Shown here piece after piece: positions 43,132 to 62,788 of a stretch of 64,000 nt of DNA. The stretch is taken from assembly GCA_963706025.1 (NCBI GenBank), contig CAVPLM010000005.1, positions 864,001-928,000 of the forward strand. The letters are read 5' to 3'. This DNA is from an uncultured Actinomycetes bacterium. GTDB lineage: Bacteria; Actinomycetota; Thermoleophilia; RBG-16-64-13. A model generated the notes under the pieces. That model searched no databases. It saw only the letters and a list, made by a program, of their open reading frames with translations, and was not told the DNA's origin. The translations under genes were made by a program, and so were the position numbers. The number at the start of each line of letters is the position of its first letter. Position 1 is the stretch's first letter.

Positions 43132-43187
43132 TTGTTATACGAACATTTGTTCGTATATAATCACGCTCTCAACAGAACGTATGTTCG
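43132..43187 (+). promoter_or_regulatory. two LexA (Gram-positive/actinobacterial) SOS boxes overlapping a sigma-70 promoter
   Basis: CGAACATTTGTTCG (43140-43153) and AGAACGTATGTTCG (43174-43187); TTGTTA-18-TATAAT flanks box 1. Confidence 0.88.
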
Positions 43188-43249
43188 AAAAACCGACCAG
43201 ATCTTGATTGGATTCTTTTCATATTTATAAAAATGCAACATCTATTGCA

Positions 43250-46200
43250 ATGACACAGACCGACCCCCCATCCGGCAGCGGTCACGCCGGCGGCCGTCCA
43301 CCCAGCTCGAACGGAGGCCCGGAGGGCATGCCGCTCCAACGGTTCAACGTGCAGGGGATCCCGCCCAGTCACGACTACATCCGGCGGCCCGACACCGACC
43401 CCAAAGATGGCTGGGCCCGCGGACCCGCTGATCCCGGTCCTGCCCCCCGGCCTGGTCCCGTTCTTCAGCCGGGCGAGGCATCCACCCCGGCGGGTGAACG
43501 ATCCACTCCGGCAGACCCCGGCTCTGCCCGATCGGAGGCGCCGGGAGTACCTCCCTACGGCGGCATCCACAAGTTCGGCTACACCCGGCCGCTCAAGAAA
43601 CACGAGCAGCCAGCGGCCGCGGGCGCACCTGGGTCTGGCGCGACGGCCGGCACCGGCATCCCGGCTCACGCCCCGGTCGCCGCCGGCACTCCTGCTCCCG
43701 ACGCCTCCCCCGCTGTTTCGCCCGGCGTCTCTTCCTTCATCCACCTCCACGTGCACTCGAACTTCTCGTTCCTGGACGGCGGCAGCCGGATCGAGGAACT
43801 GGTCGCCCGCGCTGCTGAGTTGGGGCAGTCGGCTCTGGCCCTCACCGACCACGACGGCCTCTACGGCGCAGTCCGCTTCGCTAAAGCCTGCGCCAAGCGG
43901 GGCATCAAGCCCATCTTCGGGGCCGAGGTACGGGTGGAGTCGCTGCTCGCCGACAGCGGCCCCGAGGGAACAGTCGCGGCGCCGGCCGGCGTGGCAGGTA
44001 GCACCGCAGGCGCCGCGGCCGTGCCACATTCGCGCCCCGTCGACTCAGGCGCCGCCCCCGACGATCCTCACCATCTCGTGCTCCTCGCCGAGACCCGCGA
44101 GGGTTATGCCAACCTGTGCCGCCTCCTTTCCGCCGCCCATCTGGCCGATCCCGAACGCCAGCGCCCACCCGTCGTGACCCTCGAGTCGCTACGCGCTCAC
44201 ACCCACGGACTCATCTGCCTCACTGCCTGCCGTCACGGCGAGGTGGGCTACCTGGTCGACGCCGGCCGCCACGCCGACGCCCTCCACGCGCTCCTCCGCC
44301 TGCGCGAGATCTTCGGGCCCGATAACCTTTACGTAGAGCTTCAGTACTTCGGCTACGAACCTCACCAAGAGGCCCATGCCGGCCAGCACGGCTCTCCCGT
44401 GTATCAGAAGATCCCTGCCCACGGCGGCCGTCTCCGACATCGCCCCGCCGGCGATCATTGCACCAACTCGTCCGACCATCCGACGCCCAAGCCCTCGCCT
44501 CCGCCCTCCCTTCCGCCTCCCGCTCCTGGTTCAGGCCGAACGCATTCCTCAGTGCTTACCTCACCATTCCCTCTCGGTGCTACCACTGCCACCGAGTCCC
44601 ATTTTCTCCCTCTGCGCTATGATTGCATTGCAACCATAGTTGCAGAATGGCGGCCCTCTTTGCCTCCTAAATCTGTGGAAAACTCCTCGCGCCTCCCCCC
44701 GCTCGACCTCCGCCCCGATCTCCCTAAGGGCCACCCACAACGCCTCAATCCCTCGGACTATGATGTAGGGTTTCACCGAAACGGCCACCCCTGGCGTCTC
44801 TCCTGCCCCACCTACTGCCTCCACCTCACCCACCTCGCCCGCGCCTGCCACCTCCCCACCGTTCTCACCACAAACGCCCATTACGCAGGTGAATACGATC
44901 GCGCCGTCCATTTGATCTGTCGCGCCGCCGGCCACGATCAGCCTCTATCCAGCTACCCAGAGCCGATTCCCGGTTACAGGTGTTTAAAATCTTTATTCTC
45001 GCTTGAGACTTTAGTATCACCATTACTGAAGTTTCTCGATTTCTCTACTGAAGTAAGACCGGCCGCCGACGATTGCGCGGGAGTGCATATAGAACTAAAT
45101 GCAGAGACTATTGCGTATACGGAGGGCGGGCAAGAGGCCGGCACGCCCCCACCTTTAGCCGCAGCGATGTCCAGCGCAACTCCCGTGGGTCCCCTGGCAG
45201 CCCCCGCGCTCATCGCGCAGCGGTGCAACGTCGACCTCGAGCTGGGCGTCTTCCACTTCCCCAAGGTCGACGTCCCCGAGGGTGAGACCGCCTACTCGCT
45301 GCTCGCCAAGCGTTGCTTCCGAGGCATCGCCCGCCGCTACAGGCCGGTGCCCCCACGAGCCGTCGAGCTGCTCGAGAAGGAGCTCCGCATGATCCAGCAG
45401 ATGGACTTCGCCCACTACTTCCTGGTGGTGCACGATATAGTCAGGTGGGCCCACGCCAAGGGCGTGGCATGCAGCGGCCGGGGTAGCGCCGGCAACTCCA
45501 TCGTCTGCCACGCGCTCGACATCACCGCCTCCGAGCCCATCCGCCACAATCTGCTGTTCGAGCGCTTCCTCAATCCCAACCGCCGCGAGATGCCCGATAT
45601 CGACGTGGACTTCTGTTCCTCGCGCCGCGACGAGGTGATCGAGCACATCTACCAGACTTTCGGATCCGAGAACGTGGCCGTCGTGGCCAACGTCAACACC
45701 ATGTCGCCCCGCTCGGCGGTCCGTATCGTGGCCGAGGCCCTGGGCTTCGCCCCCACCGAGATCAACGCCCTGGCCAAGCACGTGCCCCGGCACGGGGACG
45801 CCGCCCGCATCCGCGAGTATCTGGCCGGCGCCTGGCCCGAACTGCGCGATTCGCCGCTGCAAGACGGCGCCCACCCTTCGCCGCTGCAGGACGGTGCTCC
45901 GCCGCAAGGCGCCCACGCCGTCGCCCCGGGGCAAGTTGGGGGGCGAAGCGCCCCGCCAGGCGCCCCGTCGCAGGGCGCTGCCCCGGGGCGCCCCGGCGGC
46001 CGCTACGCACGCTTCCTCGATCTGGTCGAGCGTCTCGACTCCTTTCCCCTGCACCTGGGCACTCACCTGGGGGGCTTCGTCATCGCCGACAGACCGATCT
46101 CTTTTTACGCCCCCCTCCAATGGGCCGCCAAAGGCGTCGTGGTCACCCAGTTCAACAAGGACGACGTCGCCGCCCTGGGCCTGGTCAAGATGGACATCCT

Positions 46201-48256
46201 CGGCCTTCGCACCCACTCGGCCGTCTCCGAGACCGTCCACCTCGTCCGGCAGCGCACCGGGCGCCGCATCCGTCCCTACGACCTCCCTCCCGACGACCCC
46301 GCCGCCTACGAGATCATCAGCAACGGGGGATCCATCGGGCTCTTCCAACTGGAGTCGGCCGGACAGCGCAACCTCGCCTCCCGCCTGCAAGAACGGGATT
46401 TCGACGACGTCATCGCCGCCATCGCCCTCTACCGTCCCGGTCCGCTGGAGGCCGAGATGATCGGGCCCTTCATCGACCGGCGCTGGGGTCTGGAGCCGGT
46501 CCGTCTCCCCCACCCCGCCATGGCCGAGGCGGTGGCCGACACCTACGGGGTCATCCTCTACCAGGAGCAGGTGCTCCGCATCGCCCAGTCGGTGGCCGGG
46601 TTCGACCTGGCCGACGCCGACTCCCTCCGCCGGGCCATGACCCGCGACCGCAGCCGGGAGGAGATGGCCAAGATCGGCGAGACCTTCATCGCCCGCGCCG
46701 TCTCCCGGGGAGTGCCGGAGGAGTCCGCCCGCGAAGTCTTCCGCCAGCTGGAGGGCTTCGCCGCCTACGGGTTCAACAAGAGCCACTCGGTGTGCTTCGC
46801 CGTCATCAGCTACGCGACGGCGTGGCTCAAGGCCTACTACCCGGCCGAGTTCCTGTGCGCCGTCCTCAACAACCAGCCCATGGGCTTCTACACCCCGCGC
46901 ACGGTGCTGAACGACGCCCGCCGCTTCGGGTTGGAGGTCCGGCCGCTGGATATCAACCTGTCGGGGCGTGGTTTCACGGTGGAGGATGAGATACCGCCTG
47001 ATGTGTGGGGCACCGGGGGTGAGTCAGACCTTCCGGGCGCGGGCGATGGGGCGACAAGTGACCCCGTGGGGGCCGTGAGAAACGTGGCGGCCACGCCTGC
47101 CGCCGGGGCGCCCGCCCCCTACGACCCCTTCGCTCAGGCCTGGACCGCCGAGCACGACTGGGGCCTCACCGAGGCCGATCTGGCCGAGCTACAGGCCGAG
47201 CAGGAAGGCGAGCAGGCCTATGCCGAGGCCCTGCGGGCGGCGCAGACACAGGTCGATGACTCTCACACGGCCGCGAACCTACATACGCCGGCTAAGGACA
47301 CCCGGTCTTCGGGGGCAAATCCTGGGGCCGTTTCGACCGGCAGCGCCGCCAACGGGGCGGCCAGTCCGGCACCAGGCGGTGAGCCGCCCCTGGACGGAGG
47401 CGTGGAGCCGGGCTCCTGCCTCGCCCCCAGTTGCGGCATCGCCCCGGATGCCGGCCGGGCCCTGCGGGTGGGGTTCTCCTACCTCAAGCAGATGGGCGAT
47501 CGCTCCCTGCACCGCATCGAGCAGGAACGCCGCCACGGCCCCTTTACATCCTTCGAGGACTTCTACCTCCGCACCCGCATCGACTACCCGGTGGCCGAAA
47601 ACCTCGTCCGGGTGGGCGCCTTCGACTCCCTGGAGCCCGACCGCACCGAACTGCTCTGGAGACTGCCTCTGCTGCACGATCGCCTGGAGGCGCTGGCCGG
47701 GTCGTCCGGAGGGAGGCGCGGCCAACTGCGGGCGTTCTTCTCCCCGCCCAGCCGCGCCGGCCTGGAGAGACACTGGAGCCTGGAGGACAAGGTCCGCTCC
47801 GAGCTCGAGCTCCTGGGGCTCACCGTGAGCTGCCATCCCTTGAAGCTCTACGAGGAGGAGCTCCGCCGGATGAGGGTGCGCATGAGCTACGAGCTCCCCG
47901 CCCTGGGAGACGAGGTGCCGGTCGTGGTGGCCGGAGTCTACGAGCGGGCCCAGAACCCCTGGATGCGCTCGGGGAAAAGGACCATGTTCCTCACCCTAGA
48001 GGACGCCTACGGCCTCTTCGAGTGCGTCTGCTTCGAGTCGAAGCTCGCCAAGATCGCTCCGGTGGTGGCCCGGGCCGGCTACTTCCTGGTCCGGGGCCGC
48101 CTGCAGAACAACCACAAGCGGGGCCTGGCCATCGTGGCCGAGGAGGTGCTGGATCTGGAGGAGGTCCTGGCGAGGAGGAGGGGCAAGCGGGCGCCGGCGC
48201 CGGAGGTTATTGCGCCGGGGGCGGGGACTACCGCGATACCGAAGAAGGTGGGGTGA
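43250..48256 (+). CDS. dnaE2: error-prone DNA polymerase III alpha subunit (DnaE2/ImuC-type) with large insertions
   Basis: HLHVHSNFSFLDG, TDHD, GRGSAGNS, FERFL, PDIDVDF, KMDILG, YGFNKSH, NNQPMGFY, FLTLED; SOS boxes upstream. Confidence 0.9.
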   Translation: MTQTDPPSGSGHAGGRPPSSNGGPEGMPLQRFNVQGIPPSHDYIRRPDTDPKDGWARGPADPGPAPRPGPVLQPGEASTPAGERSTPADPGSARSEAPGVPPYGGIHKFGYTRPLKKHEQPAAAGAPGSGATAGTGIPAHAPVAAGTPAPDASPAVSPGVSSFIHLHVHSNFSFLDGGSRIEELVARAAELGQSALALTDHDGLYGAVRFAKACAKRGIKPIFGAEVRVESLLADSGPEGTVAAPAGVAGSTAGAAAVPHSRPVDSGAAPDDPHHLVLLAETREGYANLCRLLSAAHLADPERQRPPVVTLESLRAHTHGLICLTACRHGEVGYLVDAGRHADALHALLRLREIFGPDNLYVELQYFGYEPHQEAHAGQHGSPVYQKIPAHGGRLRHRPAGDHCTNSSDHPTPKPSPPPSLPPPAPGSGRTHSSVLTSPFPLGATTATESHFLPLRYDCIATIVAEWRPSLPPKSVENSSRLPPLDLRPDLPKGHPQRLNPSDYDVGFHRNGHPWRLSCPTYCLHLTHLARACHLPTVLTTNAHYAGEYDRAVHLICRAAGHDQPLSSYPEPIPGYRCLKSLFSLETLVSPLLKFLDFSTEVRPAADDCAGVHIELNAETIAYTEGGQEAGTPPPLAAAMSSATPVGPLAAPALIAQRCNVDLELGVFHFPKVDVPEGETAYSLLAKRCFRGIARRYRPVPPRAVELLEKELRMIQQMDFAHYFLVVHDIVRWAHAKGVACSGRGSAGNSIVCHALDITASEPIRHNLLFERFLNPNRREMPDIDVDFCSSRRDEVIEHIYQTFGSENVAVVANVNTMSPRSAVRIVAEALGFAPTEINALAKHVPRHGDAARIREYLAGAWPELRDSPLQDGAHPSPLQDGAPPQGAHAVAPGQVGGRSAPPGAPSQGAAPGRPGGRYARFLDLVERLDSFPLHLGTHLGGFVIADRPISFYAPLQWAAKGVVVTQFNKDDVAALGLVKMDILGLRTHSAVSETVHLVRQRTGRRIRPYDLPPDDPAAYEIISNGGSIGLFQLESAGQRNLASRLQERDFDDVIAAIALYRPGPLEAEMIGPFIDRRWGLEPVRLPHPAMAEAVADTYGVILYQEQVLRIAQSVAGFDLADADSLRRAMTRDRSREEMAKIGETFIARAVSRGVPEESAREVFRQLEGFAAYGFNKSHSVCFAVISYATAWLKAYYPAEFLCAVLNNQPMGFYTPRTVLNDARRFGLEVRPLDINLSGRGFTVEDEIPPDVWGTGGESDLPGAGDGATSDPVGAVRNVAATPAAGAPAPYDPFAQAWTAEHDWGLTEADLAELQAEQEGEQAYAEALRAAQTQVDDSHTAANLHTPAKDTRSSGANPGAVSTGSAANGAASPAPGGEPPLDGGVEPGSCLAPSCGIAPDAGRALRVGFSYLKQMGDRSLHRIEQERRHGPFTSFEDFYLRTRIDYPVAENLVRVGAFDSLEPDRTELLWRLPLLHDRLEALAGSSGGRRGQLRAFFSPPSRAGLERHWSLEDKVRSELELLGLTVSCHPLKLYEEELRRMRVRMSYELPALGDEVPVVVAGVYERAQNPWMRSGKRTMFLTLEDAYGLFECVCFESKLAKIAPVVARAGYFLVRGRLQNNHKRGLAIVAEEVLDLEEVLARRRGKRAPAPEVIAPGAGTTAIPKKVG

Positions 48257-48317
48257 GAGCCCAGAACGGTCGGAACCAATCGTCCCCGCAACCCTGGGGT
48301 GAATCGCGTCCCCTCGC

Positions 48318-49367
48318 CTAGCGATCACCCTCAGTGCCGATGAGCAAGTGCATCACGATGTGGACTAAGACGTCCTTTTCCTCGGGACGGCTCTCGGCCA
48401 TCATGAGGGTCAGAGCGACCAACGCGGCGTCTGACACGCGTGGAATAGCGTCGGGTCCGGCCAAGACGCCGTTTCGCTCCAGGAACCACAAGAAGAGGGC
48501 GGCGGCTATCCGCTTGTTGCCATCGACAAAGGGGTGGTCCTTGACGAGGAAGTAGAGCAGGTTTGCAGCCTTCTCTTCGAGACTCGGGTACAAGTCCTGG
48601 CTCCCAAAGGTCTGAACGACCGCGTTCAATGCGCCCCGAAGCGCCTCCCCTCTCTCCACGCCGAACAATCCCGAACCACCAAATCGAGAGCGTAGCCGAC
48701 CCACAACCTGTAGAGCATCACTGTGAGTGAGGACGTAGCGCACCTCGCGGACAGAGGTGGGCTTGGTGATGCGCTGATGATCGTAGTCGTCCAGGAGGCC
48801 GAAAGCGCGGTTGTACTCGCCAACGATCGCTAAGAGAGCCTGTGCCTCATCTCCGCCAAGGTCGACCCGGACAGAGGTGTCGGCGATCAGGCGCACCGTT
48901 TGGTTGAGGTCGCGCAGTCTCTTTTGGTTCAGCGTGTAGCCCCGTACGATATGGTCGCGGATGACCCCCGTAGCCCAGATGCGAAACTGTGTGCCCCGCT
49001 TTGAATTCACCCGGTAGCCGATGGAGATGATGGCATCGAGAGCGTAGAAAGCGACAGGCCGATCAGCACCAGCAATGTGCATTTTTTGCACATTGCCTTC
49101 CCGCTCCAGCTCACCTGATGCAAACACGTTGTTCAGGTGCTTGGTAATCACACTGCGCTCGGTGCCAAAAAGCTCTGACATCTGCTTCTGCGTCAGCCAG
49201 ATGTTCTCGCGCTCCAGACGAACGTCCAGAGTGACCGTCCCGTCGGGGGCGACGTAGAGTACTACTTCGCCGGCAGGCGTCCCCTTGGAGATAGCCTCGG
49301 GCTGGAGGGACGCAGCCTCTCCGATGCCTGCCGTATCTGCCCGCTCCGTCGTCCTGTCATCACCCAT
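48318..49367 (-). CDS. RhuM N-terminal + Fic/Doc domain protein
   Basis: WLTQKQMSELF, IGYRVNSKRGTQFRIWAT; HPFVDGNKR. Confidence 0.92.
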   Translation of the reverse strand: MGDDRTTERADTAGIGEAASLQPEAISKGTPAGEVVLYVAPDGTVTLDVRLERENIWLTQKQMSELFGTERSVITKHLNNVFASGELEREGNVQKMHIAGADRPVAFYALDAIISIGYRVNSKRGTQFRIWATGVIRDHIVRGYTLNQKRLRDLNQTVRLIADTSVRVDLGGDEAQALLAIVGEYNRAFGLLDDYDHQRITKPTSVREVRYVLTHSDALQVVGRLRSRFGGSGLFGVERGEALRGALNAVVQTFGSQDLYPSLEEKAANLLYFLVKDHPFVDGNKRIAAALFLWFLERNGVLAGPDAIPRVSDAALVALTLMMAESRPEEKDVLVHIVMHLLIGTEGDR

Positions 49368-49409
49368 GGCTCTCCCCCGTTCGGTGTCCCCCGCGAAGAC
49401 GTCCGCCTC

Positions 49410-49439
49410 CCGATAATGCCAACTCCGACAATGCCAACT
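49410..49439 (+). repeat. 15-bp tandem repeat upstream of rhuM-fic
   Basis: ccgataatgccaact ccgacaatgccaact. Confidence 0.7.
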
Positions 49440-49549
49440 CTATAAGGGTAGCGCATGAGTCGGACGCTTCCGAACCATCATCGCAAACCGCCACGTGATG
49501 AGCATCGGACCGAAGGTGGAGATTGGCCCACAGCCTCCGCCACGGCCCC

Positions 49550-49825
49550 GGTGCTGGCCAGGAGGCGGGGGAAGCGGGCGCCGGCGCCGGCCGGGGGCGA
49601 CGGGCGATCGAGAACCGGACACCCGGAAGCCGTGCAACCGGCCAACAACCGTGAGGCACGAGTTAGTCAGAAACCCGCAGCCCCGGCGGGAGATGCCGCA
49701 GATTCCGGACGCCGTCGAGCTGCGCAGACGCCGGGAAGAGGAGACCTACGGGGAAGGCTCGGCCTCAGCCAAGAAGCGGCCGCCCGGGCGCAGGGACGAG
49801 GGCCATTCCAAGAAAGGTGGGGTGA
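49550..49825 (+). pseudogene. displaced dnaE2 3'-end fragment (copy 2)
   Basis: Encodes VLARRRGKRAPAP...PDAVELRRRREEETYGEGSASAKKRPPG...KVG*, matching the dnaE2 end and copy 3. Confidence 0.85.
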
Positions 49826-49870
49826 AGACTCAGGTCTTGCCCCGGAGGAGGTGAACACCGCGCTCCGTCG

Positions 49871-50242
49871 CTAGCCGCCGATGGGAAGCCGCCGAATCCT
49901 GATCCTTGAATGCTCAAAGACCACGACACTCCCTTGGGCAAGTTCCTCCGCGATCGAATCTAGATTGTTGAGAAGAAGAGCAAGCTGAGCTTCGGGGCGC
50001 CTGTTGATTCCACGCCTAAGAAGGATGACCGAAGGTTTCGGTCGGCCTAACAAGGCGAGCAGCGTGCCGAAATCAGTGTCTGCCGAAACCAGGATCCTGT
50101 CTTCTTTCTCGGCAAAGGCGAACACCTCATTGTCGCTCGCCGACTGCATACCAAAGTCGCGCACGTGAACGGAGTCATGTCCGACCAGGCTCAGACCGAC
50201 AGCGACACGAGACGAAATCGCGTTGTCCACGAGGAACTTCAG
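49871..50242 (-). CDS. DUF5615 PIN-like toxin (VapC45-like)
   Basis: [25 protein letters not shown]; probable CTG start overlapping the upstream stop. Confidence 0.85.
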
Positions 50243-50469
50243 GAAGCCACCCGAAGCGGGAGTTCTCTCTCACGAACGCTCTCGGCCGCATAGTGAAGCG
50301 CCTGTTCAATGTCCTCGGGCTCCAAATCAGGGTAGCCATCGATGATCTCGCCGGTCGTCATACCTTCGGCCACCATATCGACCACTGTGGCCACAGGAAT
50401 CCGAAGTCCGCGTATGCAGGGCACCCCTCCCATTTGCTCGGGATCGGTGGTTATGCGTTCGAACCTCAT
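50239..50469 (-). CDS. DUF433 antitoxin
   Basis: [33 protein letters not shown]. Confidence 0.92.
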
Positions 50470-50754
50470 CGAATGTCCACCTCCACGCATCCATGCCGAA
50501 ACTCGCTCGCTAGCCAACAGTATAGCCTGGCCCGTGAACCTCCTACCGATCGGCTCGCCACCAGCCGACTGGCAGAACGGCACCGAGTTTCGAGTACACG
50601 TCTAGGTACATCTTGGCATCGGCGCCGCGCTTGACCCTCAATTCATATGGAATGAGTACTTTGCCACGAGACCCCGGCTTGTTAGTCCGACCAAAGATGG
50701 AGCTTGGCGGATTGGACCTGACCTTGCAGCCCGATGCCCACCTAATCCCGATTG

Positions 50755-53268
50755 TCATCCCACCTCATACCCCATGGCTCGATAGCCTCGCAGCCGACGC
50801 TCGTGCATGCGGGCCAGAACCGGCACGTCAAGGTCGGCATAGTCGTAGATCAGCACCTCCGTCTTGCCTTCATCCAGACGGTGGAGACGTCCGGCGTACT
50901 GCACCAGAGTCCCCCGCCAGGAGATGGGCAGAGCAAGAAACAGGGTGTCCAGGCGGGGGTCATCGAAGCCCTCGCCCAAGTAGCGGCCGGTGGCAACCAG
51001 TACGCGCTCCTCACTCGAGGGAATGTCCACCAGCCGTGCAGCGATCTCCCGGCGACGCTTCGCTCCCATGCCCCCATGCAGCGCGATCACGTTGGTCACG
51101 TGCGGCTGGAGCGCCGCGACCAGGACCTGCAGATGCTCCCGGCGTTCGGTCAACACAACAGGGGATCGTCCGCTTCTGACCGCAGCGACCACGTCTTCCA
51201 CCATGAGACTGTTCCGACCATCGTCGGCCGCCAGCGCCGAATACAGCTCCTGGATGCCCGGGACGGCAGTCGCGGGCGCAGTGCCTGGACCCGGCTGAGG
51301 ATGAGTGAATCCGGTGCGCCGTACGATCACTCGATGCCCAAAGGGTCTCTCTTCCGCCTGCTTTCGAGGATCGACCTGGAAACGGATGGGACCGCACTGC
51401 ATGAAGAGAATGGGATGGTGGCCGTCCTTTCGCGTCGGCGTCGCGGAGAGCCCGAGCACGTAGCGCGCGTGAGCGGTCTTCGCCACTTGCTCGAACGTCC
51501 CGGCCGGTACATGGTGGCATTCATCCACGATCAGTTGCCCGTAGCCTGCCACCAACTCGTCCACCTGGCCCCGACGGCCCAGGCTCTGAAGCAGGGCCAC
51601 GTCGATCACTCCCCCGGGCCTGCGCTTGCCGGCCCCGATCTGACCGATCTGGTTGGGATCTATGCCGAGGAACGCCGCCAGCCGTGCTTTCCACTGGTCC
51701 AGTAGCTGCTGACGGTGCACCAACACCAGCGTGTTTACCTTGCGCGCCGCGATCATGTGCGCGGCGACCACCGTCTTGCCGAACGCAGTTCCCGCCGACA
51801 GAACCCCGGTGTCGTGTGCCAGCATGGTCTCTGCGGCTTCTTCCTGATCGGGACGAAGCCTGCCCTGAAACTCGACGTCGATCGATCGGCCCTGAAAACG
51901 TTCGTCCGTCAGATCCAGGTGTACGCCTAACTCGGTCAGCAGCCCCTCCAGCTCCGCAAGGCAACCGCGAGGAAGAGCGATATGCTTGGGGAAATCCTCG
52001 GCGCACCCGATGACGCGAGCATGCCCGAACACAGGCAGGTGCATGGCCTGCGCACGGTAGAACTCGGGATTCTGGAAGGCACCCAGACGGATGATCCGAT
52101 TTCTTAGGGCCGGCGATAGGTGCTCTTTGGGGATGTAGACTTGATTCGCAAGCACGACCGTCAATGATTGGGGCAGGTCGGCAAGAAGCCCCGCCTTTCC
52201 CACTCCCGGGATGCGGGCGGAGACCCTCGACAGCCGCCAGGGCTCATCCGGCCACTCCTCCTCCGGCACGACTCGCACCCCCATGATCTGGTCCCGAGCC
52301 TCGGCCTCGGCAATCAAGGCCTCTAGCCGCTCGTGTGGCACCCGTTCGCACGAAGACAGGTAGGCGAACTGATCGTCATGGGGGACGAGACGGTCGTTGA
52401 GGAAGACCGTATTCCCCTGATCCCGCGCCCGCCGTTGGAGAGGCAGGGCTATGAGGTTCCCGAAGCCACCCAGAGGCAGAGTGTCTTGGCTCGGGAACAG
52501 GCGGTCGTACGAAGCCAGACCGATTTCCGGACGCGACTCCATGGCCCGGGTCAGGAGCAACGATCCCAGCTTTCGCGCCGACGCCGCAGGAGCGGGCTCT
52601 GCAAGGAAGACCCACAGGTGAGCGCCATTCCCGGAGCGGGACCGTTCCAGGGCGCCCGATATCCCCAACTCGCGACAGGTGGCGAGCAGAGCCGCGGCGT
52701 CGTCCTGCCAGTCCGCGCCATCAAGATCGATGGCCACGAGCCAGCAGGTCTCATCAGGCAGGAGTGGATAGATACCCACGACGAACTCGCGGTCGACGCT
52801 GCTCTCCAGACAACCACGCAGATGATCGTGGAGAACTTCGGGAGTAAGCGGCAAGAAATCACGATTAGGGCACGCGGCGCAACGGGTGCGGCGCTTGTCG
52901 CACAGGCCTCTCACCCATTCGCTGCTGCACGCGGGCTGGAAACCCGAACGGTCGGAGCGTTGATTCTCCCAGCGGCGGGCATACACGTCGGTTCGTCCGC
53001 GAAAGAGGCCGGCAAAGAGGGCGACCTTCTCCGCGGCGGACGAGTGACGCGTTACAGGTCCAGGGCGCGAGAGGCTGCGCAGGGGCGCCGGAGGTGAGGC
53101 TCCGGAAGCGGTGCCGATCTCGCGAGGTGAAACTGCCCGGTCGAGGTGCGCGTCGGCCCGCAGGTTTCGGGCCCGATCCAGAAGCTCCGCCCGCTCGCGT
53201 TCAAGAGCGGTTACACGTGCCTCGATGGCCGCCAGTTCGGCGGCTTTGTCCAGGGAGGAATTGTTCAT
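50755..53268 (-). CDS. TOTE-type archaeo-eukaryotic primase fused to an SF2 DEAD/DEAH helicase
   Basis: LFRGR.DVYA.RW, Cys cluster, IDLD, ERSRSGNGAHLW, YDRLFPSQD; TAFGKT, DECHH, LSAT, QYAGRLHR. Confidence 0.88.
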   Translation of the reverse strand: MNNSSLDKAAELAAIEARVTALERERAELLDRARNLRADAHLDRAVSPREIGTASGASPPAPLRSLSRPGPVTRHSSAAEKVALFAGLFRGRTDVYARRWENQRSDRSGFQPACSSEWVRGLCDKRRTRCAACPNRDFLPLTPEVLHDHLRGCLESSVDREFVVGIYPLLPDETCWLVAIDLDGADWQDDAAALLATCRELGISGALERSRSGNGAHLWVFLAEPAPAASARKLGSLLLTRAMESRPEIGLASYDRLFPSQDTLPLGGFGNLIALPLQRRARDQGNTVFLNDRLVPHDDQFAYLSSCERVPHERLEALIAEAEARDQIMGVRVVPEEEWPDEPWRLSRVSARIPGVGKAGLLADLPQSLTVVLANQVYIPKEHLSPALRNRIIRLGAFQNPEFYRAQAMHLPVFGHARVIGCAEDFPKHIALPRGCLAELEGLLTELGVHLDLTDERFQGRSIDVEFQGRLRPDQEEAAETMLAHDTGVLSAGTAFGKTVVAAHMIAARKVNTLVLVHRQQLLDQWKARLAAFLGIDPNQIGQIGAGKRRPGGVIDVALLQSLGRRGQVDELVAGYGQLIVDECHHVPAGTFEQVAKTAHARYVLGLSATPTRKDGHHPILFMQCGPIRFQVDPRKQAEERPFGHRVIVRRTGFTHPQPGPGTAPATAVPGIQELYSALAADDGRNSLMVEDVVAAVRSGRSPVVLTERREHLQVLVAALQPHVTNVIALHGGMGAKRRREIAARLVDIPSSEERVLVATGRYLGEGFDDPRLDTLFLALPISWRGTLVQYAGRLHRLDEGKTEVLIYDYADLDVPVLARMHERRLRGYRAMGYEVG

Positions 53269-53294
53269 TGACGCGCACGATAGCGCATGAGCGG

Positions 53295-53923
53295 GCAGAT
53301 GGGCGACCGCTCCCTGGGCCACATCGAGAAGGAACGCCGCCGCATGGGGGTGCGCATGAGCGACGAGCTTCCCGCCCTGGGAGACGAGGTGCCGGTCGTG
53401 GTAGCCGGCGTCTACGAGCGGGCCCAGAACCCCTGGATGCGTTCGGGCAAAAAGGACGATGTTCCTGACCCTGGAGGACGCCTACGGCCTCTACGAGTGC
53501 GTGTGCTTTGAAAGCAAGCTGCCCCAGATCGCCCCGGTGGTGGCCCGAGCGAGCTACTTCCTGGTCCGCGGCCGCCTGCAGAACAACCACAAGCGGGGAC
53601 TGGCCATCGTAGCCGAAGAGGTGCTCGACCTGGAGGAGGTACTGGCGAGAAGACGGGCGAAACAGACACCGACGGTGACGGCCACCGCGGCCACAACTGC
53701 GGCGCGCGGCGACGGCCGATCGAGAGCCGGATACGCGGAAGCCGGACGAGCGGGGCGGGTCGCGCTGAACAAGAAGAGCCCCGGCCGGAAGATGCCGCCG
53801 ATCCCTGAGGCCGTCGACCTGCGTGGACGCCGGGAAGAGGAGACCTACGGGGAAAGCTCGGCCTCAGCCAAGAAGCGGCCGCCGGGGGCGGGAACGACCG
53901 CTATTCCGAAGAAGGTGGGATGA
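53295..53923 (+). pseudogene. displaced dnaE2 3'-end fragment (copy 3: OB fold + tail, with an internal deletion)
   Basis: QMGDRSL..IE.ERR joined directly to RM.VRMS.ELPALGDE...FLTLEDAYG...GAGTTAIPKKVG*. Confidence 0.9.
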
Positions 53924-54108
53924 GACAGGAAACAATCACAATAACTGAGACCTTCGATCAGCCCCGAAACACATACTGCTGGTGCCACTCCAGGAACTCA
54001 CCCTTCGGCCGCCGCCTGGCCGGCGACGACTACCCGGACAGTGTATCGGGTACCTCCATTCGCGGGATATGCTCGGGATAGCGGCGTCGCACGAAGGGAG
54101 CGTGGTCC

Positions 54109-55023
54109 ATGAGTCCTGAAGACACTTCCCAGGTCTTTATGATCGGCTCCTCGGACAGAGACGCGGCCGTCAGGAGCCTGTTTGAGAAAGCAGGCTTGGG
54201 CGATCTTTCCGGCAAGAGTGTGGCCCTCAAGGCCAACTTCAACAGCGCCGATCTCTTTCCGGCCTCCACCCACCCGGACACTCTCCGGGCCATAGTCACG
54301 CTGCTCAGGGAGGCCGGAGCGCGTGAGATCACCCTAGCCGAAAGAAGCGGCATGGGAGATACGCGCGAAGTCTTGGAGAGACTGGGGATCTTCGCCCTCT
54401 CTGAGCAGTTGGGCTTCAAGGTCGTCGTCCTGAACGACGAGCCCGCGGAGAGGTGGGCTCACATCGAGCGCGGCGGCACCCATTGGCTCCGGGGCTTCTA
54501 CCTGGCAAAGGTGGTCCTCCAGTCGGACATCGTGATCCAGACGTGCTGCCTCAAGACGCACAGGTTCGGGGGGCATTTCACGATGTCGCTGAAGAACTCG
54601 GTCGGCCTGGTGGCCAAGAAGGTCCCTGGAGGTCACTACGACTACATGTACGAGCTGCACGGCTCTCCATTCCAGCGGCTCATGATCGCTGAGGTCAACA
54701 AGTTCTACGCGGTGGATTTCGTGGTCATGGACGCGGCGAAGGCGTTCGTCAGCGGGGGGCCGGACAAAGGAGCAGGGGTTGAGCCGGGCCTGATGCTGGC
54801 CGGCAAGGACAGAGTGGCCCTCGATGCCGCGGGAGTGGCGATCCTCAGAGAGTTCGGGGCCTCGAGTTTGATGAAGAAGCCCGTCTTCGAGCTGGACCAG
54901 ATACGCAGGGCGGCAGAGCTGGGAGTGGGAACCGGGTCCGCATCGGCCATGGAGCTGGTGCCGCTGGACGAACAGAGTCGGGGAGCGGCCGACAGAATCC
55001 GAGCCATCCTCACGACGGAGTAG
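54109..55023 (+). CDS. DUF362 domain protein
   Basis: VALKANFN, THP, CLKTH, TMSLKN..G, DRVALD. Confidence 0.88.
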   Translation: MSPEDTSQVFMIGSSDRDAAVRSLFEKAGLGDLSGKSVALKANFNSADLFPASTHPDTLRAIVTLLREAGAREITLAERSGMGDTREVLERLGIFALSEQLGFKVVVLNDEPAERWAHIERGGTHWLRGFYLAKVVLQSDIVIQTCCLKTHRFGGHFTMSLKNSVGLVAKKVPGGHYDYMYELHGSPFQRLMIAEVNKFYAVDFVVMDAAKAFVSGGPDKGAGVEPGLMLAGKDRVALDAAGVAILREFGASSLMKKPVFELDQIRRAAELGVGTGSASAMELVPLDEQSRGAADRIRAILTTE

Positions 55024-55039
55024 CCGAACGTCGTCTGCT

Positions 55040-55231
55040 TCACACGATGCTCAGTTCACCGGCCTTGTGGACACAGGGGATCTGCCCGCAGGCCAGCTCT
55101 TTGTAGAGGTCGAGAAGGTTGGCGCCCAGCTCATCCAGGGTCTCGCCCTGGGTCCCGTAGTCCATATATTCCTCGAGCCGGCCGACGAGCATCCCATCTT
55201 CTTCGCAGTAGATGAAGCGCCTGGTCTCCAT
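55040..55231 (-). CDS. short HicB-like antitoxin (no adjacent toxin)
   Basis: DG..G.LEEY.DY.TQGETLDEL..NL.DLY. Confidence 0.7.
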   Translation of the reverse strand: METRRFIYCEEDGMLVGRLEEYMDYGTQGETLDELGANLLDLYKELACGQIPCVHKAGELSIV

Positions 55232-55514
55232 GACCGTCCTGTAGCCCGAGCGCCCAGCCGGCATCACGATGACCTCGCGCGTCCTCGTCCGGCCGAGAGA
55301 TCCGTGCAGGTACTACGCCGGCCGACGCCCGAACAGTTATCTGCCTCTGGGTGGATCTTGTGGGAGACGCCCTCGGCTGTCCGTGCCAATCTCAGACCAA
55401 AGACCTACTGCCGCTCGTGGGACCAAGGCGTAGGCTTCGTGGTCCACTGCACGAGACGCCCCCTGCTCGGCAGTTAGGTAGTATTCTCTAGACCTGATGT
55501 TCGAGGAGGCAGGT

Positions 55515-55727
55515 GTGTCGGTGGTCTTCAGGATCGAGCTCGAGCAGGAGACCGATGGGCGCTGGATCGCTGAGGTGGTCGAGCTCCCCGGGGTCTTGGC
55601 CTACGGCGCGACACAGGACGAAGCCATCGCGCACGTGCAGGCATTAGCCCTGCGTGTCGTCGCCGATCGTCTCGAGAACGATGAGGCCGGCAGCGAGCTT
55701 CTGAACATCTCATTCCTCGCTGCGTGA
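55515..55727 (+). CDS. HicB family antitoxin
   Basis: EQE.DGRWIAEV.ELPGVLAYG.T..EA; RBS GAGGAGG. Confidence 0.88.
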   Translation: MSVVFRIELEQETDGRWIAEVVELPGVLAYGATQDEAIAHVQALALRVVADRLENDEAGSELLNISFLAA

Positions 55728-55936
55728 CCGACTGGCCGAGCACTCAGGCCAAGACCGTTCTGGCCGCCCTTCTCCGCATCGGCTGGGAGGTCGAACGTCA
55801 GTCGGGTTCCCACCGGGTCCTTGCGAGACCAGGCTGGCCGCACTTGGTGTTCGCCTTCCACGACCGTGACGAGATCGGACCACGCATGCTCGCCCGCATC
55901 GCAAAGCACAGCGGATTGCGCCCGCAGGACCTGTGA
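55724..55936 (+). CDS. HicA family toxin
   Basis: LLRIGW..RQSGSH, AFHD..EIGP.ML.RI; GTGA overlap with hicB. Confidence 0.88.
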   Translation: MTDWPSTQAKTVLAALLRIGWEVERQSGSHRVLARPGWPHLVFAFHDRDEIGPRMLARIAKHSGLRPQDL

Positions 55937-55947
55937 ACGAGAGCAGG

Positions 55948-56421
55948 CTAGCCGGCTTTGGTCCCTCCCCCGCCGCCGTATTTCCGCATCTGCTCGCAGA
56001 CATAGCTCTCGGGGATGGGCTCCCCCACCATAGCCAGGAACATTGGAGCGGAAGTCGTTCCCAGGAACCGGAAACGTCGGGTCATGTCCGCAGTCTTGGC
56101 CTCGAAGTCGCCGAGCGAGCTCAGGTATCCGCCGAACCCGCCCGCGGTCTTGTCCAGTTCCAGCAGCATGGCGGCGTTGTCGGCGATGGCCTCGATCTTC
56201 TTGCGGTTCCTGATCACCCGAGGGTCGGCCGCAAGCCGGTCGATGTCGTCGGGAGTGAGCCGCGCGACCTTCTCGACATCGAAACCGCCGAAGGCCTCCT
56301 TGATCCCCGGCCATTTCGCGTCTACGACCTTCCAGTTGATCCCCGAGGTGAATATCACCTTGCTCATGCTCTCGAGGTAGCCGGCCAAGGACTGCGGCTT
56401 GTCGCCACGCGGATCGTGCAT
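55948..56421 (-). CDS. DNA-3-methyladenine glycosylase I (Tag)-like protein
   Basis: F.SG.NW.VV..KW....AF..FD, D.RVIRNR.KI.A..NA, FRFLG. Confidence 0.8.
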   Translation of the reverse strand: MHDPRGDKPQSLAGYLESMSKVIFTSGINWKVVDAKWPGIKEAFGGFDVEKVARLTPDDIDRLAADPRVIRNRKKIEAIADNAAMLLELDKTAGGFGGYLSSLGDFEAKTADMTRRFRFLGTTSAPMFLAMVGEPIPESYVCEQMRKYGGGGGTKAG

Positions 56422-56767
56422 CCCGTCTTCCTTTCCCACGTATGCCTTGCCGAGTGATGTACCCCGGGGCAGCCCAAACCACGCGCCCGGCGCCCGGCGC
56501 CGGTAACTGAGGCCTAGGGCAAATGCGTCGTGCGGGTTACGGCAAGGCCCAGTACAACCAAAGCCGGACGGAAGGGAGAATGATGTGCCGCACTGCCGGT
56601 GTCAGAGTCACCCCCGCGGCAGTTCACCGCGAGGCCCCAGATCGCAAGATCTCGCTCGGGCAAACCGGCGATCGCACACCCCGTGCCGCTAGGGTAGCCG
56701 ACTGCCCAACTCGAGGCTACAATCGGCCTGTACGACTCCACCGAGAAGCCGGAGAGGAGCCACCCGG

Positions 56768-57085
56768 ATGCCCGTCAACCTCTCTATCAAGAACGTGCCC
56801 GACGAGGTCGCCCGCGGACTCCGCAACCGCGCGGCCTTGAATCAACGCTCGCTTCAGGAGGAACTGCTGGAGATACTGAAGCAGGCGGCCAAAGACCAGG
56901 GTCCGGTCACGATCGACGACCTGTTGACGACCGCCCAGCGGAAGAAGCAGGCTCTCGACGAGGCGGCCGCCAAGGTTCGCGCGGCCCAGGACGCAGAGCA
57001 CGAGAGAATGGCCCGGCGCTTCGAGGACCTCGTGGCCGAACCCGATGACGCTCACCCGGGCGGACGATCCGGCGGGGAGATCTAG
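56768..57085 (+). CDS. Arc/FitA-like ribbon-helix-helix protein
   Basis: NLSIKNVPDEV...LR.RA..N.RSLQ.EL..IL. Confidence 0.85.
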   Translation: MPVNLSIKNVPDEVARGLRNRAALNQRSLQEELLEILKQAAKDQGPVTIDDLLTTAQRKKQALDEAAAKVRAAQDAEHERMARRFEDLVAEPDDAHPGGRSGGEI

Positions 57086-57152
57086 TCGCCCGGCGGCTCC
57101 TCGGCCAAGACGATCGGTGGCCGACTCTCGCTCCGCGGAGTCTTGCGGTCGC
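57016..57152 (+). repeat. 137-bp direct repeat, copy 1 (partner at 59740-59876)
   Basis: Aligned by eye with 4 mismatches. Confidence 0.93.
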
Positions 57153-57287
57153 CGGCTAATTCGCGGGCGATGGCCTCGCGCACCAGTGCGGCCACGCTGA
57201 CTACATCGTATCGCCGGCGTTCGACGAACTCGCATGAATAGTACAATCAGCGCTGTTAACCAGGAGTCTCCGGGAAGGAGCGGTCAA

Positions 57288-57596
57288 ATGGCCAAAGAGA
57301 TCATCCTCTACAACCTCGCGCCGGGCGTGACCGACGAGCAGTTCAAGGAATACGTGGACACCGAGAAGGGCCCCTACATCGACGGTCTTCCTTCGGTGAA
57401 GAGATATGAGCTGGTCAGGATCGACAGCAGTCGTTCGGGCGTGGTGCCCTTCAGGTACTGCGGGATCGTGCACCTCAACAGCCTGGAAGACTTCCTGAAC
57501 ATCGACACCAAGACCGAGGAATACAAGGCCTTCTCCGCCAAGATGGCGAGCATGACCTCGGAGATCCACGTGACTTTCGGGGAGGAGATCCACTAG
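57288..57596 (+). CDS. dimeric alpha-beta barrel (EthD/REDY-like) protein
   Basis: RBS AAGGAG; YNL.PGV...F.EY, LPSVK.Y pattern. Confidence 0.65.
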   Translation: MAKEIILYNLAPGVTDEQFKEYVDTEKGPYIDGLPSVKRYELVRIDSSRSGVVPFRYCGIVHLNSLEDFLNIDTKTEEYKAFSAKMASMTSEIHVTFGEEIH

Positions 57597-57752
57597 AAAG
57601 GGTGACCGCCGAGGCCTCGCCGCGCTTCTACGTATCGGCCGGAAGGTAGATGCCCTACCCGCCGCAGATGGTCTTCGCATGCTGCAAAGGGACCGCCTGC
57701 CTCGGCCTCGAGGCAGGCGGTCCCACGAAAGAGGCGTCGCCGATCTGGTTCC

Positions 57753-59039
57753 CTACTTCGCCAGCCGCACCAGCATGGCCTTGGCGAAGGCTGCGTGACC
57801 GCGCCCGATCCACTTGACCACGTGCATGAAGGCGATCAGCACGAGCACTCCCACGATCACTGCGAACGGTATCCCCCACAGCGGGAACCACCACTCGTAG
57901 GTGACGCCTTCCCAGACGAAGGTCTGATCCCCAAGCCACCCGGTCCACGCCCACAGCGGAGTCGTGATCAGGCTGAGCCCCACGGCGATCCCGGTCACCG
58001 CAATGGAGAAGTAGATGATGCCCAGGGGCAGCATCAGGACCATGTAGGCCATGGAGAGCCAGGTACGGCCGTCCTTCACCCAGAACCAGATCCGCTCGAA
58101 GAAGCCGGCGTTGGGAGGTTCGGCCCGCGGCCTGCGCGGCATCCGCGTCCCCAGGAACAGCTCCACGACCCGTCCTTCGAACAGCGCCATCCCGCGTACG
58201 ATCCCCAGCACCAGCAGGAACAACGGCACGCCGATAATGAGGATCAGCAGACCCCCGGCGGTCGAGACCCCGGTGACCACGATGGTGAAGTAGGCGATGC
58301 CCGTACCCAGCGCGATGATCATGTAGACGAGCGCCTTGTAGACCGCCGGGTCGATGAAGACGCCGAAGATCTGCCGCCAGACGCTGGGCGGCCTCTCTGC
58401 CCCGGCCGCGGCGGTGGCCCCGGCCGCGGCCAGGCCGGCCTGGACGCCGGTCGGGAGGGGCGCGACAGGAGCGACGGGGGCGGGAGGCGCCACAGGAGCG
58501 GCTGGCGCGACCGGGGGCGCCGGTGCGACCGGCGGCGCCTGGGCCGGGCCGGCAGCCGCGGGGGCCGCCATCTCGGCGGCCTCGCCCGAGATCGGCACCG
58601 CTTCCACGGCGGGTGCCTCGTCCTGGACCACCGTCACCTCGGCCTGAGCCACAGTCTGAGCCTCAGCGTCGGTGGGGGCCGCAGTCGGACCCGCTGCCGC
58701 GACCGCAGCCGCTGCCGCGACCGCAGCCGCCGCCTCAACCACAGACGGTTCCGCGCTCACGGGCGCCGCGAGAACCTCAGCCCCGACGTCGACCGCAGCG
58801 GGCTCGGCGCCCAACGCAGCCGGCGCCCCGCTCACCGGCATCCCCAGGTACGCCGCCGCCACTTCCTCCGGGGTCCCGTAACCCTCGGCGACGGTCGCGA
58901 ACCGGCCTCCCGCGGCCATCTCCGCCTGCAGGTACTCCTCGGCATCGAACAGAGCGTCCTGCACCAGCGCCGGATCCGCACCCGCGGAACGCAGCGCCGC
59001 CTGCAGTTCCCTCAGATAGCTGTCTATGTCATGAGCCAC
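57753..59039 (-). CDS. membrane sensor-domain protein (HAAS-like N-terminus, Ala/Pro linker)
   Basis: IDSYL.EL...L, YGTPEEVA; FFERI....KD.RTW...YM.LMLPLGI.YF. Confidence 0.8.
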   Translation of the reverse strand: MAHDIDSYLRELQAALRSAGADPALVQDALFDAEEYLQAEMAAGGRFATVAEGYGTPEEVAAAYLGMPVSGAPAALGAEPAAVDVGAEVLAAPVSAEPSVVEAAAAVAAAAAVAAAGPTAAPTDAEAQTVAQAEVTVVQDEAPAVEAVPISGEAAEMAAPAAAGPAQAPPVAPAPPVAPAAPVAPPAPVAPVAPLPTGVQAGLAAAGATAAAGAERPPSVWRQIFGVFIDPAVYKALVYMIIALGTGIAYFTIVVTGVSTAGGLLILIIGVPLFLLVLGIVRGMALFEGRVVELFLGTRMPRRPRAEPPNAGFFERIWFWVKDGRTWLSMAYMVLMLPLGIIYFSIAVTGIAVGLSLITTPLWAWTGWLGDQTFVWEGVTYEWWFPLWGIPFAVIVGVLVLIAFMHVVKWIGRGHAAFAKAMLVRLAK

Positions 59040-59436
59040 GATGTCCCTCCAGAACGGCATCCACGAATTCACGAGTCCGGATCCACGATTCCTGCCACAG
59101 GCCGACCGCCTGCCGGCCTTCCTCGGTGATCTGGTAGTAGCGGCGAGGCGGACCCGTCACCGAAGGCTCCACCTCGCTCGTAAGCAGCCCCCCGGCCTCG
59201 AGCGACCGCAGCACCGGATAGAGCGTTCCCTGTTTGACCGGCAATCCCCCGCCGAAATCTCCGAGCTCCTTGGCGATCTGGTAGCCGTACAGCGGCTTGT
59301 CCGCGTGAGCGAGGAGCGCCAGGAGAGCGAGCGACACGATGCCCGAGCTCAGCTCCTTCTGGAACTTGCGCACGCTGGCCGACACGACCTCCGGCGTATC
59401 CTCATCGAACTCTTGTGTTGCTGGTGTATCTGTCAT
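59029..59436 (-). CDS. PadR family transcriptional regulator
   Basis: YGYQI, GTLYPVL.SLE..GLL, PPRRYY.IT..G. Confidence 0.93.
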   Translation of the reverse strand: MTDTPATQEFDEDTPEVVSASVRKFQKELSSGIVSLALLALLAHADKPLYGYQIAKELGDFGGGLPVKQGTLYPVLRSLEAGGLLTSEVEPSVTGPPRRYYQITEEGRQAVGLWQESWIRTREFVDAVLEGHRGS

Positions 59437-59739
59437 TCAGTCCCGCCTCCGATCGTTCCGGACCGGTTGGCTGCCGGCAGGCCGGCGAGCCCTTGCTGTC
59501 GTTGACGAGCCCTTGAAACCCTGCCCTCTGGCACGGGCCGTTGCTTGTCATGACCCCACTATACTACTAAGTTCATAATAGTCAAGAGCTCGGAGTAGCG
59601 GAGATGGACGGACTGGTGAGGGAACGGCGAGAGGGTGGTTGCAGCAGAGGGGCGAGGAGGGGACGGAGCCCTTCTCTACGGACATCGGTCGGTCTCAGGA
59701 GGGAACCGACTACCAGGCGGACGACAGCTATTCGGAGAA

Positions 59740-59876
59740 GCGCTCCGAGGATCTCGTGGCCGAACCCGATAACGCTCACCCGGGCGGACGATCCGGCGGG
59801 GAGATCTAGTCGCCCGGCGGCTCCTCGGCCAAGACGATCGGTGGCCGACTCTCGCTCCGTGGAGTCTTGCGGTCGC
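59740..59876 (+). repeat. 137-bp direct repeat, copy 2
   Basis: Matches 57016-57152. Confidence 0.93.
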
Positions 59877-60777: not shown

Positions 60778-60874
60778 CACGCTGGAGCGCTGACCTCGCC
60801 GGCGCTCCTGCCAACGTCCACCCCACACCAACTACCGATCAACTATCGACCCCCCTCGCATGTGATAGACAGCT

Positions 60875-62087: not shown

Positions 62088-62362
62088 TTCTAGGCCTCCG
62101 TGGTTCGAAGTATGTCGCGCGTGAACTGCTTGGTCTTTTCGACCCCCGTCTCGACCAACGGACCTCTATTGCACTACTGCCGTAGATGAAAGCCCTCCCT
62201 GCATATCACCCTGCCCCTGTGCAGCACAAGAGGGAGAATTCGGAATTCCGCGGTAGAGGGGCTCAGACTCCTCGCCGGCGGTGTCTCGCCACCCGGTCCA
62301 AACAGCACCAGATCTTGACCGGGGGAGTCCTGAACGCGAATGAGGTGCAGCGTGTCGGGGGC

Positions 62363-62788
62363 CTAGAGCGCGCCCACCCATTCCAGGGGGTCGACCACCA
62401 GGACTCCCGGGATCGACGCGAAACCGGCATCGACCGTGAGGATCTCTCGCACACCCTGACGGCGCGCGACCGCGGCGTGGAGCAGGTCGCGCGCGGAAGC
62501 CCCAGACCCGCTGGGTATCCGCTCACCGAGACGTCTGGCTTCGTCGACATCGTCGAAGGTCACGGGCAGGATCCGCCGGACCGCGGCGGAGATCGCGTCG
62601 AACGTGGCCCGGATCTCCTTGTGCCGGCCGATGCTCCGGTAGCGATGGAGGACCTCCTGCAGAGTCTCGGCGCTCGTGATGAGCACCGCTCTATCGGCTG
62701 CACCGGCACGGAGGATATGGGCGCAAGGGTCTTTGAACCGACTCTCCGCTCCCATCGCGTATATGAAGATGGTCGTTTCCACGTACAT
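62363..62788 (-). CDS. VapC PIN-domain toxin
   Basis: YVETTIFIYA.G, ETLQE, ARDLLHAA, LT.D.GF. Confidence 0.88.
   Translation of the reverse strand: MYVETTIFIYAMGAESRFKDPCAHILRAGAADRAVLITSAETLQEVLHRYRSIGRHKEIRATFDAISAAVRRILPVTFDDVDEARRLGERIPSGSGASARDLLHAAVARRQGVREILTVDAGFASIPGVLVVDPLEWVGAL

Follow-up and report, generated by a model that had tools for sequence, protein, structure and literature searches.

In a 64,000-nucleotide stretch of DNA from an uncultured member of the Actinomycetota (hereafter the window; G000:C5:864001-928000, where G-, C- and L-numbers denote genomes, contigs and loci and G000 is the source genome), the 3' end of a gene for a DnaE2-like DNA polymerase was found to recur twice downstream of the intact gene (43208-48256, plus strand), at 49550-49825 and 53295-53923, both times in direct orientation. 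The order along the locus is intact gene, RhuM-Fic, tail copy 2, DUF5615-DUF433-TOTE, tail copy 3 and then further variable cargo. The source is a metagenome-assembled genome (MAG) of 3.66 Mb in 30 contigs, with 92% completeness and 7.3% contamination. We give about an even chance to the reading that this locus is a recombinase-free, homology-anchored tail-displacement array, in which imported DNA would have replaced the tail of the gene and moved the former tail downstream.

Three occurrences of the terminal codons of the polymerase gene (...IP[KR]KVG and stop; pattern ATHCCNAARAARGTNGGNTRR, with up to 2 mismatches) were counted in the window, where 100 shuffles gave an expectation of 0.02; this bears out an earlier note on this DNA that had reported three direct dnaE2 termini, all ending in KVG. 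The repeated part of the intact gene (47488-48256, plus strand) comprises the HhH/OB-fold region and a short C-terminal tail, and the protein C-terminus reads ...PGAGTTAIPKKVG before the stop. Copy 2 (49550-49825, plus strand) starts at the equivalent of 48163, its start being 90% identical to 48163-48203; it is frameshifted, contains in-frame stops and ends ...IPRKVG. Copy 3 (53295-53923, plus strand) consists of a 47-nt piece that matches 47488-47534 followed by the equivalent of 47851 to the stop codon, with approximately 317 nt lost internally between two short imperfect repeats, and ends ...IPKKVG. It is 85–91% identical to 47851-48199 (BLAST E 4e-118), carries one extra base near 53449, and is 76% identical to copy 2 over 239 nt. 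The last ~46 nt of the gene are found in all copies. Copies 2 and 3 are both of a long-extension type, having in common a C-terminal extension of ~220 nt not present in the intact gene; this long tail is the form present in many relatives' genes, including those of the same-genus genomes G002 and G003, and the short type of the window's intact gene was also found in G073. Across genes the C-terminal extension ranges from 21 to 100 amino acids and ends in PGAGTxAIPKKVG every time.

The differences between the gene and its displaced copies lie mainly at third codon positions, which indicates that the copies were once working alleles. In the window 25 of 35 differences are of this kind (p 5e-6 against 1/3), in agreement with the earlier note, which had described diverged copies with synonymous changes and different starting points. 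Third-position shares in the displaced copies of two relatives were 32/49, 21/25, 22/25 and 22/31 (G073) and 32/57 and 82/163 (G070), and an eighth comparison (G070 copy A) showed the same one-position bias with the frame shifted. Judged from these substitutions, this is the pattern of copies that diverged as working alleles under coding constraint and not as drifting duplicates. The displaced copies of G070 and G073 are moreover mosaic, with a hypervariable linker (55–80% identity) between tracts that are 99–100% identical to the gene; a search of 46 loci revealed no possible source of these divergent alleles that was closer to them than the resident gene.

The polymerase gene is conserved in an uncultured actinobacterial family whose records are labelled Thermoleophilia or Gaiellales. 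Comparison of the regions downstream of the gene, a check that the earlier note had proposed, showed variable cargo behind it and, in at least 6 of the 61 genomes of the family that were searched (G000, G004, G015, G041, G070 and G073), displaced tails on the contig that carries the gene; these genomes span at least five genera. At least 11 displaced copies were counted, every one in direct orientation; G070 has three, two of which are ~2 kb long, and G073 has three along with small remnants. The description of the locus as integron-like, which implies dedicated machinery and frequent capture, is overstated in view of this 6/61 frequency. As a separate observation, two loci each with a near full-length polymerase copy, some of them frameshifted, were seen in G019 (C32 and C33) and in G041 (C8 and C28), which could be either a real duplication or strain mixture in the MAGs.

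Left ends of the displaced copies fall at the equivalents of window-gene positions about 46174, 46262, 46342, 47440, 47488, 47523/47524, 47865, 48054 and 48163, so that repeats of 62 nt to 2.1 kb start at nine or more different gene positions. Ten junctions aligned base by base were all sharp, with only 0–2 nt common to the cargo flank and the gene sequence that it replaces, and such left ends fit an illegitimate joint, as far as alignments can indicate. The right end of displaced copies is always the stop codon, past which the genomes share no sequence. The last codons themselves vary synonymously, so their conservation is at the protein level.

The clearest comparative evidence came from two genomes of one genus, G069 and G073. 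The intact gene and cargo of G069 are collinear, at 93% identity over 1173 nt across the stop codon, with displaced copy C and the right-hand cargo of the G073 array (L024). In G069 the intact gene is followed by HigBA-like cargo, while in G073 that same sequence starts inside copy C, ~13 kb past the stop codon of the intact gene. G069 therefore shows the empty-site state of the G073 array, and the collinearity shows that an old tail moved downstream together with its old neighbour as one unit.

These observations are best accommodated by a route of homology-facilitated illegitimate recombination. DNA from a related lineage would bring in the 3' part of the same polymerase gene together with that lineage's downstream cargo, and would pair with the resident gene through the common polymerase sequence, which would serve as a homologous anchor. 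The far end of the import would then join illegitimately inside the resident gene, upstream of its stop codon. The outcome would be an intact gene whose tail is imported and which is followed immediately by the new cargo, and the former resident tail, 5'-truncated and silent, would move downstream along with its old neighbours. The present order in the window may have arisen from two such events, or from one event importing an existing two-unit array. The earlier note had likewise proposed that tail replacement pushes the old tail downstream, a proposal that is supported in part: the sharp and variable junctions, direct orientation, third-position bias and the G069/G073 comparison argue for it, whereas some relatives' copies are mutual duplicates or lie at the ends of IS21 elements.

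Several results weigh against this route. No donor carrying the window's tail-plus-cargo units was detected in the 49 named loci, in the 61 genomes of the family or in the 80 TOTE loci from metagenomes, the last found by a scan with the TOTE protein in which 0 of 80 loci carried a polymerase tail (nhmmer and tblastn). A sliding identity scan of the window gene against 27 relatives gave no clear 3' breakpoint. A short tree (291 columns) was mostly unresolved, and some G070 and G073 copies clustered with their own gene at 97–100% identity; the tree supports this grouping for copies A and B of G070 and for copy B of G073 (98/95 and 98/88). A 164-nt insertion with terminal inverted repeats, resembling a miniature inverted-repeat transposable element, occupies the same position in G073 copies A and C (L066, about 2790-2950 and 10380-10540), and an IS21 element (IstA/IstB) lies between G073 copies B and C, both of which start at one gene position beside sequence resembling an IS21 end. 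The own-gene clustering, the 164-nt insertion and the IS21 ends indicate that internal duplication, gene conversion and insertion sequence (IS) activity also shaped the arrays. In addition, all genomes compared are MAGs, and in the four sequencing runs that support the assembly (see below) positions 54018-56522 are almost uncovered, which leaves the junction between copy 3 and the downstream sequence neither supported nor contradicted. For the window cassettes, no pre-insertion state was seen, as in no relative does the window's cargo directly follow the intact gene.

An alternative that we consider possible, if unlikely, is a circular intermediate. According to a model published for rhs arrays (PMC2935791), homologous recombination between donor tails would pop out a circle of cargo and tail fragment, and a single RecA-mediated Campbell-type crossover would insert this circle with duplication of the fragment. 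Direct repeats of 0.3–2.1 kb at 85–100% identity are good substrates for homologous recombination, and the mosaic identity tracts show that recombination between gene and copies has taken place. A moving circle, however, predicts a conserved junction between cargo and tail fragment, and no junction or cassette was shared at the DNA level between genomes within our sparse sampling of 61 species-level genomes; even the DUF5050/amidase cargo of G004 and G073 has the same Pfam families with no DNA similarity. The left end is also nearly unique to each copy, and the first fragment would still need an illegitimate event. It is because no cassette-plus-junction is common to genomes that we ranked this version second to displacement by an imported tail.

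Distinctly less likely is a local origin, in which the 3' part of the gene was first duplicated segmentally through unequal crossing-over, replication slippage or IS activity, and the cargo was turned over afterwards by the usual exchange at hotspots, with no imported tail. The copies that group with their own gene in G070 (A and B) and G073 (B), the common insertion in G073 copies A and C, and the IS21 ends at a single gene position in copies B and C would all be explained in this manner. The third-position share of 65–88% in most comparisons nevertheless exceeds the ~44% that we estimate for a neutrally drifting copy, and linker alleles of gene and copy differ by 20–45% within otherwise near-identical tracts. 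Window copies 2 and 3 also differ in tail type from the intact gene, and in the G069/G073 comparison the old tail has kept its old neighbour.

Tandem islands with repeated 3' ends of their target gene are a textbook pattern at tRNA genes and some protein genes. The locus could accordingly be read as decayed tandem integrative islands at the polymerase 3' end, in which a site-specific recombinase used an attP carrying a replacement tail and the recombinase genes were later lost or act in trans, and the presence of the last ~46 nt of the gene in all copies speaks for it. We hold this to be very unlikely. No Phage_integrase (PF00589) match was found in C5:864001-928000, the 8 matches in the genome lying elsewhere, and no tyrosine recombinase was found on or close to the array in any of the five array-bearing relatives. 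Resolvase (PF00239), rve and RVT_1 gave no match genome-wide (in a 92% complete MAG), hence no serine recombinase match, and all 5 DDE_Tnp_1 matches of the genome are on contigs other than that of the window. Pfam searches of 20 cargo open reading frames (ORFs) from the relatives' polymerase-downstream regions detected no recombinase except the IS21 IstA/IstB pair in G073. The window junctions have no shared inverted repeat, attC-type element or common core, and the sequences past each stop codon are unrelated. Repeats of up to 2.1 kb with many different start positions, and terminal codons that vary synonymously and are thus conserved at the protein level, are further points against an attachment site. 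The genome-wide recombinase search that the earlier note had called for thus revealed no cognate enzyme in the window, and its statement that the window lacks an integrase, transposase or attC-like site held. A search for dnaE2 as an integration site of genomic islands, judged by titles, returned nothing relevant.

Other types of machinery were considered as well. A structured RNA or tRNA as integration target was rejected, as the window has no tRNA and there was no Rfam match at E<=1 in 43-58 kb. A diversity-generating retroelement was also rejected, there being no RVT_1 match in the genome and mismatches that are not adenine-specific (A at 19 of 42 mismatches in copy 3 and at 4 of 42 in the gene). 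The search for IS91-type rolling-circle capture gave no Y2_Tnp match, but control genomes were also silent, and this result is hence uninformative. On the side of the displacement route, Ku and ComEC homologues are present in the genome and would allow end joining and DNA uptake.

Assembly support for the array came from Logan contigs of 4 public runs of one study, 95–99% alike, which bridge 48059-50419, 48059-51032 and 50446-53324 and thus span the array from the gene tail, through both cargo blocks with copy 2 between them, to nucleotide 30 of copy 3; the four runs may be related to the source sample and hence not independent of it. A joint skipping 49165-50217 (27 letters on the shorter side) was not used. 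That assembly or binning artificially joined strain variants of a single tail one after another is scarcely credible, despite the 7.3% contamination of the MAG, the other tail allele in the runs (53649->48194) and the contig ends of C14 and C11 that overlap at 96.5% identity, given that the copies are only 76–91% identical and of unequal length, that each junction is unique sequence, that contigs of the 4 other runs bridge the gene to the first 30 nt of copy 3, and that the same architecture is found in 5 other MAGs from different assemblies.

Two of the runs (X1 and X2) contain a tail allele that resembles copy 3 (53325-53649) to at least 95%, lacks the extra base at 53449 and runs into the short tail end; the joint 53649->48194, whose shorter side has 32 letters, was seen in one contig each in two runs. 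In a co-occurring strain, copy-3-like sequence may therefore be a working gene allele.

A further polymerase tail remnant, consisting of the last ~175 nt with an in-frame stop, was observed away from the locus at G000:C14:151283-151457 (L001 9884-10058), and a remnant of the same type is on G000:C11, minus strand (L002 9988-10165). An IS3-type orfA remnant precedes it and a minus-strand HTH_3 gene lies 10 nt past its stop codon. The ends of C14 and C11 are 96.5% identical across an overlap of 5.7 kb, so that both remnants probably represent a single locus that was assembled twice.

The intact gene at the head of the array encodes a protein with the Pfam domains PHP, pol3_alpha, finger, HHH_6 and OB fold, which identify it as a paralogue of the DNA polymerase III alpha subunit (longest ORF 1682 amino acids), although an in-frame ATG at 43250 is a likelier start than the TTG at 43208. 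The protein ends directly behind the OB fold. It is unusually long (~1670 amino acids), and its large, variable insertions (at about 44440-44710, 44970-45220 and 47000-47400) are poorly conserved, with strong differences even from genus to genus and also between gene and displaced copies. The canonical DnaE is encoded at C5:770963-774679 (1373–1396 bits, over the NCBIfam cut-offs), making the window polymerase the second paralogue; with its large insertions it scored 805 bits for DnaE and 797 bits (796.6) for the error-prone polymerase, both under the cut-off (939 bits for NF004225). No imuA/imuB-like gene was found beside the polymerase in a domain search of upstream ORFs, and the only IMS-family gene of the genome is at C5:722164. 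Two LexA box-like palindromes of what we take to be the Cheo-type consensus, CGAACATTTGTTCG and AGAACGTATGTTCG (43139-43188, plus strand), flank a TATAAT in an AT-rich stretch 20–70 nt upstream of the polymerase ORF; the first is a perfect palindrome and the second has one mismatch. As LexA-type boxes are not enriched window-wide (6 found against 3.1 expected), the argument for LexA rests on the position and the one perfect palindrome. The window polymerase is therefore best described as DnaE2-like and probably under SOS control. The name dnaE2 given in the earlier note is apt as far as a second, DnaE2-like paralogue with LexA-type boxes is concerned, but goes too far for a protein that scores under the NCBIfam cut-off and has no adjacent imuA/imuB.

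A bolder interpretation would be that the 3' end of this SOS-induced polymerase gene serves the whole family as a recombinase-free landing pad, that all incoming DNA with polymerase homology carries in the genes beside it, that old tails act as further pads and as excision repeats, and that recombination at this point rises when DNA damage or phage attack induces the gene. We regard this as an improbable extension of the displacement reading; SOS-linked capture and excision between repeats had been raised as possibilities in the earlier note. If it were true, the locus would represent a functional analogue of integrons built from homologous recombination alone, in which capture and reshuffling of defence and toxin-antitoxin cassettes are coupled to stress.

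The cargo between the tails is on the minus strand and its Pfam content is as previously described. Cargo 1 is a RhuM-Fic/DOC protein (48318-49367) that matches the PADLOC candidate defence family PDC-S23 (E 1.5e-119). Cargo 2 comprises a toxin-antitoxin-like pair of DUF5615, a PIN-like family (49871-50230), and DUF433 (50239-50583), followed by an AEP-TOTE primase-polymerase fused to an SF2 helicase (50755-53322 as longest ORF; PrimPol in PADLOC). Alignments with relatives begin at residue 31 (tblastn), which places the probable true start of the TOTE protein near 53230-53260. The name TOTE is taken from the Pfam entry only, as a literature search linking TOTE, conflict system and primase found nothing. 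TOTE homologues (61% amino acid identity; 67–69% nt identity) were also observed a few kb downstream of the same polymerase at L017 4604-7051 (G023) and L053 16652-18939, in opposite orientation and with no displaced tails.

Beyond the last tail copy, positions 53924-62362 hold further variable cargo without tail copies, including DUF362, a methyladenine-glycosylase-like ORF (55948-56439, minus strand), a FitA-like RHH antitoxin ORF (56768-57085, plus strand), a sensor/PadR pair, an EamA transporter and a beta-lactamase-family protein, and a pair of PIN (VapC-like) and RHH genes follows at 62363-63279 on the minus strand. In both G003 and G016 a homologue of this pair comes immediately behind the stop codon of the polymerase gene, and gene order and content between 53924 and 63279 vary among same-genus genomes. 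Both observations suggest that the variable region probably runs from 48257 to about 62362, with only its first 5.7 kb marked by tails. The end of 53923 given in the earlier note is thus correct for the last tail copy and probably too early for the variable region.

Relatives carry as cargo AbiEi/AbiEii, HigBA-like and TacAT-like pairs as well as a nuclease of the OLD type, alongside an amidase, CBM96 and LuxR proteins, unknowns and IS21. The locus may be of benefit as a defence or toxin-antitoxin hotspot, and the earlier suggestion of a defence hotspot agrees with the defence and toxin-antitoxin-like cargo of the window; the amidase, CBM96, LuxR and IS21 genes of relatives do not fit it.

Under the displacement reading, the footprint described so far for polymorphic-toxin loci would here mark variable genes that lie behind a core gene of an ordinary, albeit accessory, kind, and the silent tails would be dated scars of successive imports. 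If this were general, truncated copies of flanking core genes would provide a simple genomic signature for recombinase-free acquisition hotspots. Such a signature would order acquisitions in time and may also help estimate how often one-sided homology imports defence genes in uncultured bacteria.

Among known systems, the closest likeness is to the C-terminal displacement arrays of rhs genes, for which the circular-intermediate model was proposed (Jackson et al. 2009, PMC2935791), and to strings of orphan CdiA-CT/immunity and MafB cassettes. These also comprise an intact gene followed by direct, 5'-truncated fragments of variable length from its conserved part, each joined to a different downstream module, with no recombinase and with homologous recombination on the conserved part proposed as the anchor. 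In rhs the gene itself supplies the variable module, a C-terminal toxin tip together with the immunity gene, so that displacement alters the protein, whereas here the tail is conserved, the modules are unrelated genes mostly on the opposite strand, and the anchor is a DNA polymerase and not a polymorphic toxin. A similar process of homology-facilitated illegitimate recombination with an upstream conserved anchor was proposed for effector-immunity arrays of the type VI secretion system in Vibrio cholerae (Kirchberger et al. 2017, PMC5361080), where old modules are shifted downstream into an array that its authors liken to integrons, noting that an integrase is absent. The orphans in that system are immunity genes selected for protection, while in the present arrays gene-tail pseudogenes mark the events and the cargo is a mixture of defence, toxin-antitoxin and miscellaneous genes.

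Tandem islands of tyrosine integrases at the 3' ends of tRNA or protein genes likewise have repeated gene ends that separate accessory blocks and leave the gene intact, but their repeats are short with a fixed core and an integrase, in comparison to repeats of 0.06–2.1 kb with differing starts and no integrase found here. Integrons resemble the locus in the serial, promoter-distal accumulation of cassettes at one site, the newest presumably beside the anchor, and differ from it in possessing IntI, attI and attC, whereas the units described here are multi-gene and have promoters of their own, most of them lying convergent to the anchor gene. In the core defence hotspots (cDHS) of Pseudomonas and the hotspots of E. 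coli, which are free of mobile-element hallmarks, a fixed core gene reportedly borders a highly variable block rich in defence and toxin-antitoxin genes whose turnover is attributed to recombination in the flanks, and such hotspots are not known to contain truncated copies of that core gene in series. In summary, displacement arrays have previously been described at polymorphic-toxin genes; the present ones accompany a DnaE2-like polymerase gene, contain unrelated cargo and recur within a family of uncultured actinobacteria.

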